Origin: an uncultured Alphaproteobacteria bacterium | Lineage (GTDB): Bacteria > Pseudomonadota > Alphaproteobacteria > Rhodobacterales > Rhodobacteraceae | Direction: 5' to 3' | DNA: 64,000 bases | Assembly (NCBI GenBank): GCA_963799455.1 | Contig: CAWCXF010000007.1 | Span: 99,221-163,220 of the forward strand | Shown: positions 25,517-28,035 of the stretch, piece by piece | Numbering within the stretch: position 1 is the stretch's first letter | How the letters are laid out: the number at the start of each line of letters is the position of its first letter | The notes under the pieces: model-generated | Database searches by the model: none | What the model was told of the DNA's origin: nothing | The model's input: only the letters and a program-made list of their open reading frames with translations | Position numbers and translations under genes: made by a program

Positions 25517-26930
25517 TTACGCGCCCTGGGGGGCTTCATCGCCTGACCCGCCAAACTTGCGTCCAGCCTTTGGCACAGCGACGCCTGTGGGCGGCTTTGT
25601 CGCTGCAGGCTTGGCCGGCAGGTCGGGGCGATCGAGCTTGCCGTCCTTGAGCAGTTGGGTGATCTCGTCGCCGGTCAGCGTTTCGTATTCGAGCATGGCC
25701 TGCGCCAACAGGTGAAGCTTGTCCTTCTGTTCGGTCAGAACCTGCGTCGCACGCTTCAATCCGCCTTCGACCAGCTCCTTGATTTCGGCATCGATCATCT
25801 TGTTGGTTTCTGCGCCCGCCATTGTGCGTGCAGTCTGCCCCATGCCGAGATAGCCTTCCTGGCTTTCCTCGTACTGGAGTGGGCCCAGCTTGTCGCTCAT
25901 GCCCCACTTGGTGACCATGTTGCGCGCAAGATCGGTCGCATACTGGATATCGCCGGATGCGCCGGAAGAAACCTTGTCGTGTCCGAAGATGATTTCCTCG
26001 GCCACTCGCCCACCCATAGCCACAGCCAGATTGGCGTGCATCTTGTCGCGATGGTAGGAGTAATTGTCGCGTTCGGGCAGACGCATCACCATGCCCAGCG
26101 CGCGGCCACGCGGAATGATTGTCGCCTTGTGAATGGGATCGGATGCGGGCTCGTTGACGCTGACCAAGGCATGACCTGCCTCGTGATAGGCCGTCATTTT
26201 CTTCTCATCGTCGGTCATGACCATAGAGCGCCGTTCTGCGCCCATCATGACCTTGTCCTTCGCGTCCTCGAATTCCTGCATGGCCACCAGACGCTTGTTC
26301 CGGCGCGCTGCCAGAAGTGCGGCCTCGTTGACCAGATTGGCAAGGTCAGCCCCGGAGAAACCCGGTGTACCGCGCGCGATGGTGCGCGAATTGACGTCCG
26401 GCGCCAGCGGCACCTTCTTCATGTGCACTTCGAGAATTTTCTCGCGACCTTCAATATCGGGGATCGGCACGACGACCTGACGATCGAACCGGCCCGGGCG
26501 CAGCAACGCAGGGTCCAGCACGTCGGGACGGTTTGTGGCCGCCACGATGATGATGCCTTCGTTGGCTTCAAACCCGTCCATTTCGACAAGAAGCTGGTTC
26601 AGCGTCTGTTCGCGCTCATCGTTGGAATTGCCAAGACCGTGACCACGGGAGCGGCCCACGGCGTCGATTTCGTCAATAAAGAGAATGCAAGGCGCGTTTT
26701 TCTTGGCTTGTTCGAACATGTCGCGCACGCGACTGGCACCGACGCCGACGAACATTTCAACGAAATCAGAACCGGAGATTGTGAAGAAGGGCACGCCAGC
26801 CTCGCCCGCGATAGCGCGCGCCAGCAAGGTCTTGCCTGTACCTGGCGAACCGACCAGCAGTGCGCCTTTGGGGATTTGGCCCCCAAGCTTCGAGAACCGT
26901 TGATCTTCTCGACCTCCTGGCGCGCCGTCG
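25517..26930 (-). pseudogene. ftsH: ftsH fragment: AAA plus M41 protease domains present, N-terminal membrane/periplasmic region missing
   Basis: Walker [12 protein letters not shown], the HEAGHA zinc motif and an FtsH C-terminal tail. Upstream of QRFSKLGG the sequence is no longer FtsH-like. Confidence 0.8.
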
Positions 26931-26934
26931 CGTT

Positions 26935-28035
26935 CGGCGCTTCGGCGGGGTCGAGGGAGTGCACGGAGTGCCCGAGGGCGGGACCGTTGACCTTCATGAA
27001 CGACGAGCCCCAAGCGGTTGGCGACGTACTCCATGAGCGTCGTCTTTCCGTAGCCGGGAGGCGAGATGAGCAACAGCAAACCCATCAAGTCCGTGCGCTT
27101 CTCATTGCCGGCGGCGCCGATCTGCTTGGCCAAGTTGTCCCCCACCAGCGGCAGGTAGACTTCGTTTACGAGGCGGTTGCGCACAAACGCGCTCATCACC
27201 TTCGGGCGAACTCTTCGAGACGGAGCGTTTCACGCGTGCGTGTGAGCAGCTCATGTCGAACGCTTCGGTACGCTTTGTACGCGGGAACTCGTCCACTCTT
27301 GAACCGGCTCAGCCGCGCCGAAATTCATCGAGTCGAATCACGAGTGATTGGTCGGTGATTCGTCCGTGCTGGCCAAGCAGCCCTTCGACCTTGAGGGTGG
27401 TCAGTGCATCGCTCGGTGTGTCTGTCCAGCTTGTCGGTCAAGGAGCAGCGCGGTCGCTTCCGTCGCCGAATGCGCGCGTCGGGCTGCCTCCTCGCCGCCC
27501 TTGCGCACGAACCCGTCGATCCATGCCCGGCACAGTGCCGCCTGCGCGGAGAGTGAGTCCGCCAGAGCTTCCACATCCTCTTCAAACGCGCGACGGCTGC
27601 CCGCGCTCTTAGGGCCGCCAAGAACTCATCCCGGAGCCACACCGCGTCACGGCTGGTGCAGAAGCGCGTGCTTCCTTCCGCCAGCTCTTGCGCGAGATAG
27701 TGCCCCGCAACCTCGGCGTCTTGCGCGCTGAAGTCCAGCGCGTGCTCCGTACGAAACCTGTCGATGCTCTTCCCCACTCTTCGCCGAGCCGAAGCTGCTC
27801 CTTTGCTGCGCCAAACGCCTTTTCAAGACGGCCGAAACTCGCTCCACGCCGCTGCAGCGACTCTCGGTCTTCGAGCCGTGACCAGTAGATCCACGCCAGC
27901 GAACGTGCGCTCGACGCGTACCGGAGAAGCCCGCCCGACTCCCGCGCCAGCAAGAGCCGGTCGAGGATGCGCGCCGCGTCCGCGTCGTGGACGCCGCCCT
28001 CGTAGCCCTCGTCGTAGCGCGCGGCGGCGACCTTG
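26935..28035 (-). pseudogene. 3' region of the giant coiled-coil ATPase gene: protein-like in all three minus frames in turn, includes the P-loop module, cut off at the junction
   Basis: Frame switches among ORFs 27609..27953, 27325..27777, an unlisted frame, and 27199 downward. The last carries [52 protein letters not shown], then [13 protein letters not shown] in yet another frame. Confidence 0.6.

Follow-up and report, generated by a model that had tools for sequence, protein, structure and literature searches.

Here, we describe a join between the DNA of two unrelated bacterial genomes in a 64,000-nucleotide (nt) stretch of contig CAWCXF010000007.1 (assembly GCA_963799455.1, positions 99,221 to 163,220 of the forward strand), which we refer to as the window. 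The join lies within two co-oriented genes, ftsH and a gene of the DUF3686 family ('DNA repair ATPase'), both of which are cut short at this point. We consider it highly probable that it is an artefactual end-to-end join of Erythrobacteraceae and Polyangiales DNA, located inside a deposited contig of 1.74 Mb. As it is almost certainly an artefact, no inference of any kind should be drawn across it.

An earlier note on this DNA, made from its letters alone, had placed a chimeric junction within 26,880-27,010. Alignment with six relatives agrees with this and narrows the breakpoint to 26,899-26,903, a precision of five bases. On the right-hand side, the relatives are a Logan assembly of SRR23287150 (L003), two contigs labelled 'MAG: Polyangiales bacterium' (L005 and L006; MAG, metagenome-assembled genome) and one labelled 'MAG: Myxococcota bacterium' (L007). 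The left-hand reference loci, obtained via FtsH homologues, are a 598-kb JGI contig (L001) and Erythrobacter sp. GH1-10 (L002, GCA_045363165.1). Nucleotide similarity to the four Myxococcota-side contigs, at 72-82% DNA identity, stops at exactly 26,899 in each of them, while blastn similarity to the two Erythrobacter-side loci begins at 26,902/26,903 and continues at 80-85% DNA identity through the ftsH stop codon. All six independent relatives therefore part from the window at the same point, each carrying its own gene on beyond it: L001 and L002 have an intact ftsH, L003, L005 and L006 an intact DUF3686 gene, and in L007 the latter gene runs past the breakpoint. A break inside genes that relatives retain whole, at no mobile-element boundary, is what would be expected of an artefact.

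On the minus strand, the letters at the join are ...GAGAAGATCAAC on one side and GGTTCTCGAAGCTTGGG... on the other; a second rendering, in which the genes abut without a spacer, gives ...GAGAAGATCAAC followed by GGTTCTCGAAGCTT... The sequence shared by the two sides is at most 5 nt (TCAAC, minus strand), a possible microhomology of 1-5 nt. Judged from the sequences compared here, it could be as short as a single letter, depending on the actual Erythrobacter parent. No tRNA was found in the window, and such repeats as occur near the join are short and due to chance, with no meaningful repeat, direct repeat or target duplication. The border likewise carries no integrase or mobile-element signature, the flanking open reading frames (ORFs) being ftsH, DUF3667, DUF3686 and a flotillin-like gene. 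The integration machinery or attachment signature that would mark a natural island (integrase, tRNA, direct repeats or insertion sequence ends) is thus absent from the border. We also considered homologous recombination between the AAA+ domains of the two genes and rejected it, because the cut points are at non-equivalent positions, ~50 amino acids (aa) after the Walker A motif in the DUF3686 protein and ~15 aa before it in FtsH. The lack of mutual similarity between the flanks also opposes such an exchange.

Both gene products can be measured against full-length orthologues. The ftsH gene lacks codons 1 to ~192, so that its transmembrane/FtsH_ext N-terminus and native start are gone, and the loss amounts to ~29% of the protein, close to the N-terminal third that the earlier note had reported missing. 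What remains is 93% identical to residues 190-652 of FtsH from Erythrobacter sp. GH1-10, contains no frameshift and retains the Pfam domains AAA, AAA_lid_3 and Peptidase_M41. The genes that lie upstream of ftsH in L001 and L002, encoding TetR and MacB-type efflux proteins, are nowhere in the window. The DUF3686 gene, whose 3′ end had also been called lost, lacks its last ~425 C-terminal codons. It aligns to residues 1 to ~1,350 of the 1,775-aa orthologue on L003, with 87% identity over 973 aligned residues, and its reading frame is repeatedly broken below ~28,040. The alignment ends at position 9,000 of L003, where the intact gene spans 4,948-10,275 and so continues for 1,275 nt past the breakpoint.

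Across the join runs a chimeric ORF of 559 aa, made up of a ~65-residue piece of DUF3686 carrying Walker A, ~35 out-of-frame codons and the C-terminal 460 aa of FtsH. It is open only because a +1 insertion at 27,002 brings the DUF3686 piece into frame with FtsH. We infer that this ORF is an accident that codes for neither a functional FtsH nor an ATPase.

Several independent genes assign the two sides of the join to distant lineages, as would be the case in an artefact. Left of the join, from 14.5 kb to the junction, the window shares with L001 and L002 an order of ten genes (ftsH, DUF3667, ParA-like, rpoZ, PLD, dnaB, UPF0262, GH25, cdd and M14) at 67-85% DNA identity. The FtsH fragment is 92-95% identical to proteins of Erythrobacter, Qipengyuania and Altererythrobacter, and both RpoZ and FtsH fall into clusters of at least 90% identity with proteins of these three genera. 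NCBIfam matches in this block include nth, dapE, engB, yidC and yifB, and dnaB is also confirmed by profile. Of the housekeeping set that the earlier note had read here, yidC, engB, dnaB, rpoZ and ftsH are all confirmed.

Right of the join, the DUF3686 gene has its nearest genomic relatives in two 'MAG: Polyangiales bacterium' contigs (93% and 90% to the query from L003), and the flotillin-like gene next to it also points to Polyangiales. All 80 of the loci returned encode DUF3686 relatives, and the majority are labelled Myxococcota or 'Deltaproteobacteria'. YchF, a PhoB-like regulator and an SDR protein are in clusters of at least 90% identity with 'MAG: Polyangiales bacterium' proteins, and the consecutive accessions of the Polyangiales MAG cluster mates follow the gene order of the window. 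NF033768, the AgmX/PglI C-terminal domain, is encoded by the gene at 53,070-54,296. The Myxococcota families named earlier for this block are present in the form of TamA/TamB-like genes, the AgmX/PglI C-terminal domain and DUF3556, to which YchF can be added.

The composition of the window changes at the same place. Plotting tetranucleotide frequency had been proposed in the earlier note, and when we segmented the window without supervision by the Jensen-Shannon divergence (JSD) of its tetranucleotides, the single best split fell at 26,500-27,000 with an N*JSD of 1,789. In 300 block shuffles, N*JSD averaged 188 ± 35 and reached 375 at most, which places the observed value ~45 standard deviations above the null. 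Every 2-kb block on the left fits the left tetranucleotide centroid and every one on the right fits the right centroid, each correlating better with its own half, and the switch takes place in the 26-28 kb block. There is no comparable second split, and the block correlations give no second junction in the window. The oligonucleotide change-point thus coincides with the taxonomic switch, as it would in an artefact.

Simple base composition is far less informative. The 'extreme' GC content at third codon positions (GC3) that the earlier note had ascribed to the right-hand genes was overstated: mean GC3 is 0.781 on the right (0.72-0.82) and 0.721 on the left (0.67-0.78), with overlapping ranges, and overall GC is 0.632 and 0.608, respectively. 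We set GC and GC3 aside as main discriminators because of this overlap and because they differ too little. It is tetranucleotide content and homology that carry the case for a chimera, and the argument from GC3 is weak.

The last kilobase of the Polyangiales side is also damaged in a characteristic way. Frameshift-aware protein-to-DNA alignment with four distant homologues detects seven net frame changes from ~28,040 to ~27,000, which pairwise (L003) and four-way (L003, L005 and L006) nucleotide alignments resolve into eight single-nucleotide insertions or deletions (indels). All eight are confined to the window, the three relatives keeping their mutual frame. The excess is limited to the 1.04 kb of Polyangiales sequence nearest the join; over its remaining 2.9 kb, the DUF3686 gene has no frameshifting indel relative to L003, only in-frame length differences. 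For a baseline, we have one frameshift per ~10.5 kb of left-block genes (in DUF3667, at ~24.6 kb) and one single-nucleotide difference per 8.6 kb against an independent same-strain assembly (L004). At the resulting ~1e-4 per base, an estimate from just these two counts, eight indels in 1.04 kb represent a roughly 80-fold excess. A homopolymer explanation was rejected on the sequence contexts of the eight indels, from which the sequencing platform cannot be deduced.

Beneath these indels, the coding signal is preserved. Mismatches to L003 across the zone occur at rates of 0.148, 0.092 and 0.475 at codon positions 1, 2 and 3, and in the last 400 nt at 0.068, 0.045 and 0.414. The retained third-position bias indicates that selection acted on this stretch as coding sequence all the way to the breakpoint and that the indels are a late overlay. 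Because this bias is kept and the damage does not extend over the whole 4-kb gene, poor consensus is indicated rather than pseudogene decay.

The join can be traced in public databases. Both NCBI and ENA record the exact 559-aa junction-spanning product (P0252), on a single contig of 1,741,513 bp, and exact-sequence look-ups in these resources place seven further left-block and eight right-block proteins on a contig of 1,741,513 bp. The join is thus inside the deposit and was not made for this window. Nor is it a pure binning effect, because binning cannot create an ORF across two contigs. Of the explanations that the earlier note had offered, an assembly chimera of two unrelated genomes is upheld by taxonomy, gene order, composition, the six relatives and the indel zone, while a binning effect and an artificial concatenation for this window are both countered by the occurrence of the 559-aa product on one deposited contig.

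Other look-ups were less informative. The 40-mer that spans the join gave no match in either of two public collections, of genomes and of metagenome contigs, neither of which returned the source contig, and the chimeric product is recorded from only the one NCBI/ENA contig and not from Logan. Exact matches in Logan were obtained for none of the seven left-block and four of the eight right-block proteins, which hints that the two organisms are unequally represented there but which we judged too weak to use. A literature search with the run and MAG identifiers gave no result. The C-terminal third of DUF3686 gave no match at 80% identity or above and none on the 1.74-Mb contig, an uninformative result since the 1,775-aa protein of L003 itself was not returned either. 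The homologue search twice missed this protein, which is 87% identical and a called gene, and its negatives are therefore weak.

The features described here are collected in Table 1.

Table 1. Features at and around the join, in window coordinates
Feature	Position	Strand	Evidence or remark
Erythrobacteraceae-type (Sphingomonadales) chromosomal block	1..26899		synteny, identity, clusters, tetranucleotides
5′-truncated ftsH, codons ~193 to stop	25517..26902	-	TIGR01241 positions 182-598 of 598
Chimeric ORF, 559 aa	25517..27196 (ORF upstream limit 27,199/27,196)	-	translation
Breakpoint	26899..26903		truncated genes abut, neither intergenic DNA nor an N spacer lying between them; window aligned with L003, L002 and L001 (three-way alignment)
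Polyangiales-type (Myxococcota) chromosomal block	26900..64000		DUF3686 relatives, protein clusters, AgmX/PglI domain, tetranucleotides
3′-truncated DUF3686 ('DNA repair ATPase') gene with DUF7902 and AAA domains	26900..30934	-	Pfam DUF3686, E = 1.9e-197
Poor-consensus zone, eight single-base indels	27002..28038		frameshift-aware, pairwise and four-way alignments
Deletions in the zone	~28,038, 27,767, 27,611, 27,322, 27,209		window against relatives
Insertions in the zone	~27,437, 27,417, 27,002		window against relatives
Flotillin-like SPFH gene, 708 aa	30938..33064	-	95% identical to the 708-aa gene directly upstream of DUF3686 on L003

How the join arose can be narrowed down to some extent. 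The final ~1 kb of the Polyangiales side may be the thinly covered end of an assembly path, where there would have been too few reads to correct the consensus. From there, the assembler could have followed a chimeric long read into the Erythrobacter sequence, or the depositor's pipeline could afterwards have placed two contig ends side by side, with no N spacer, during scaffolding or concatenation. With no more than 5 nt shared at the join, a join made in a k-mer (de Bruijn) graph is unlikely, so a chimeric long read or spacer-free scaffolding or concatenation is the likely cause.

A natural inter-phylum transfer would have had to bring at least 27 kb of Erythrobacter chromosome into a Polyangiales DUF3686 gene, or at least 37 kb of Polyangiales DNA into the ftsH of an Erythrobacter with some other means of survival, and we regard this as very unlikely. 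It would account for a join within the deposited 1.74-Mb contig and is compatible with the co-orientation of the two genes, of which the DUF3686 gene is not essential, and the possible microhomology of 1-5 nt would suit illegitimate recombination. Yet both blocks hold core housekeeping genes that are unameliorated, with 90-95% protein identity to their own lineages, and the border is devoid of a mobile-element signature. In the converse version, the target would have been ftsH, which is normally essential. Additionally, eight frameshifts are packed into 1 kb, none lies in the remainder of a gene that would be just as dead, and codon-position bias is retained, a pattern that fits a thin consensus and does not fit decay. 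The earlier note had argued that a natural 37-kb insertion into an essential ftsH is implausible, an argument framed around only one natural scenario. A less implausible form would be a Polyangiales genome taking up Erythrobacter DNA and losing the non-essential DUF3686 gene, but the indel cluster is out of keeping with it. Myxobacteria lyse other bacteria, and one could imagine that the join is real, a predatory member of the Polyangiales having captured at least 27 kb of Erythrobacter chromosome into its flotillin-associated DUF3686 gene too recently for amelioration, with the indel cluster being an unrelated consensus problem. Put in these terms, we find it even more unlikely.

Less likely again is a join made after assembly, either by concatenation for this window or through two contigs that were merely binned together. 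(Spacer-free concatenation or scaffolding by the depositor's pipeline is counted under the artefactual join and not here.) The presence of the 559-aa product and the 15 look-up proteins on a contig of 1,741,513 bp contradicts it, even though the way in which both genes are cut, like the error-rich tail, resembles a contig end. The least likely of all is that the window comes from one organism, for example a sphingomonad with a long-resident, laterally acquired island, or the reverse, in which the truncations are old pseudogenes. The modest differences in GC and GC3 would be in line with a single genome, but each half has a uniform tetranucleotide signature that differs sharply from that of the other, and the core genes of the right block cluster at 90% identity or more (YchF) or share gene order (TamA/TamB-like) with Polyangiales. 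Up to the breakpoint, on both sides, the substitutions follow a pattern of purifying selection that is incompatible with old pseudogenes. This explanation is already contradicted by the tetranucleotide split, the block correlations and the codon-position bias.

Some observations do weigh against an artefactual join of Erythrobacteraceae and Polyangiales DNA. Taxonomy and composition would look no different had an illegitimate recombination taken place naturally and very recently. The absence of the join elsewhere would rest on related species and on the 40-mer look-up. The contexts of the indels are mostly not homopolymer runs, and the indels are not clearly tied to homopolymers; as read from the sequence, their clustering would be only a proxy for low coverage.

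Joins of this kind belong to documented classes of error. Inter-species translocation misassemblies, as considered in metaQUAST-type evaluation and by metaMIC (bioRxiv 10.1101/2021.06.22.449514), similarly produce one contig from two genomes, with an abrupt taxonomic and k-mer switch, a breakpoint within genes and anomalous local sequence quality at the breakpoint. The usual short-read cases occur at shared repeats or conserved genes of at least one k-mer, whereas here at most 5 nt are common to both sides. Chimeric nanopore reads, in which one molecule or read links segments from two species of the same sample, are also documented (Meta-NanoSim, bioRxiv 10.1101/2021.11.19.469328) and would explain both a join free of homology and an indel-rich, thin consensus, although the indel excess here is one-sided and the source platform is not deducible from the sequence. 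The junctions of genomic islands and of horizontal gene transfer by illegitimate recombination are alike in that a host gene is interrupted and foreign DNA lies beside that of the host with minimal homology or none. In contrast to these, the join described here lacks an integrase, a tRNA, a direct repeat and a target duplication. It has core chromosome with housekeeping genes to either side, we did not encounter the missing half of either interrupted gene, and its frameshifts cluster within a single kilobase.

In biological terms, the join is of no consequence: this DNA has neither an FtsH-ATPase fusion nor a flotillin-FtsH operon nor an island from another phylum. The public 1.74-Mb contig, which is probably filed under one organism, includes tens of kilobases or more from a second phylum, and it can contaminate pangenomes and taxonomic reference sets and yield false calls of horizontal gene transfer or of a 'novel fusion protein'. 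Since the chimeric 559-aa product is already present in protein collections, we hope that this finding will be useful as a contamination flag. The combination of a taxonomic and k-mer switch with a one-sided cluster of frameshifts, in which the third-position substitution bias is kept, offers a signature of such joins that requires neither a reference nor reads.

The gene that lies upstream of the truncated DUF3686 gene deserves separate mention. On the evidence of L003, the flotillin-like gene is the genuine upstream partner of DUF3686, and its pairing with ftsH is not native; the earlier warning that a flotillin-FtsH link would be an artefact is in agreement with this arrangement. The nucleotide alignments to L006 and L007 likewise span both genes. 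The flotillin-like SPFH protein has no Pfam match at E ≤ 0.001 and no NCBIfam match at E ≤ 1e-5. It and the ~1,775-aa DUF3686/DUF7902/AAA protein are encoded 3 nt apart (window 26,900-33,064, minus strand; L003 2,818-10,275), and the pair is kept in at least three other Myxococcota contigs (L003, L006 and L007). It looks like an uncharacterised two-gene module that would be worth studying on an uncontaminated genome. A marginal secondary tetranucleotide split within the right block, near 32,900 (N*JSD 259, against a shuffle maximum of 212), probably reflects the unusual composition and the AT skew of these two coiled-coil-rich genes rather than a junction.

A second SPFH/Band 7 protein, of 423 aa and with weak similarity to HflK, is encoded in the Polyangiales block at 46,477-47,748 on the plus strand, ~20 kb from the truncated ftsH. 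It could likewise invite a false HflK-FtsH link across the join.

Other observations concern the quality of the sequence and its gene calls. In the GH43 glycoside hydrolase gene (minus strand, from 49,080), the window has TTT at 49,183-49,185 where L004, an independent Logan assembly (ERR12040027), has TT. This extra T is the sole difference over 8,624 nt (99.988% identity; window 48.8-57.5 kb), and it breaks the gene, which encodes 529 aa in L004 and is reduced to a 457-aa ORF in the window. Single-base indel errors in the source assembly are thereby shown directly. The exact sequence of a 182-aa rhodanese ORF (51,080-51,628, minus strand) is on record only from the Logan contig, and its cluster also holds a 71-aa member from the 1.74-Mb contig. 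This shorter protein may be the deposited contig's call for the same gene, in which case gene calling on the deposited contig would differ from the plain ORF.

On the left, the DUF3667 gene beside ftsH (23,888-25,133, plus strand) is split into ORFs at 23,888-24,634 and ~24,669-25,133 by a net +1 frameshift at ~24,580-24,650, in a variable linker. Its orthologues on L001 and L002 are 354-362 aa long. The frameshift could be another consensus error or a real pseudogene, and the public record calls the 248-aa N-terminal fragment as a gene.

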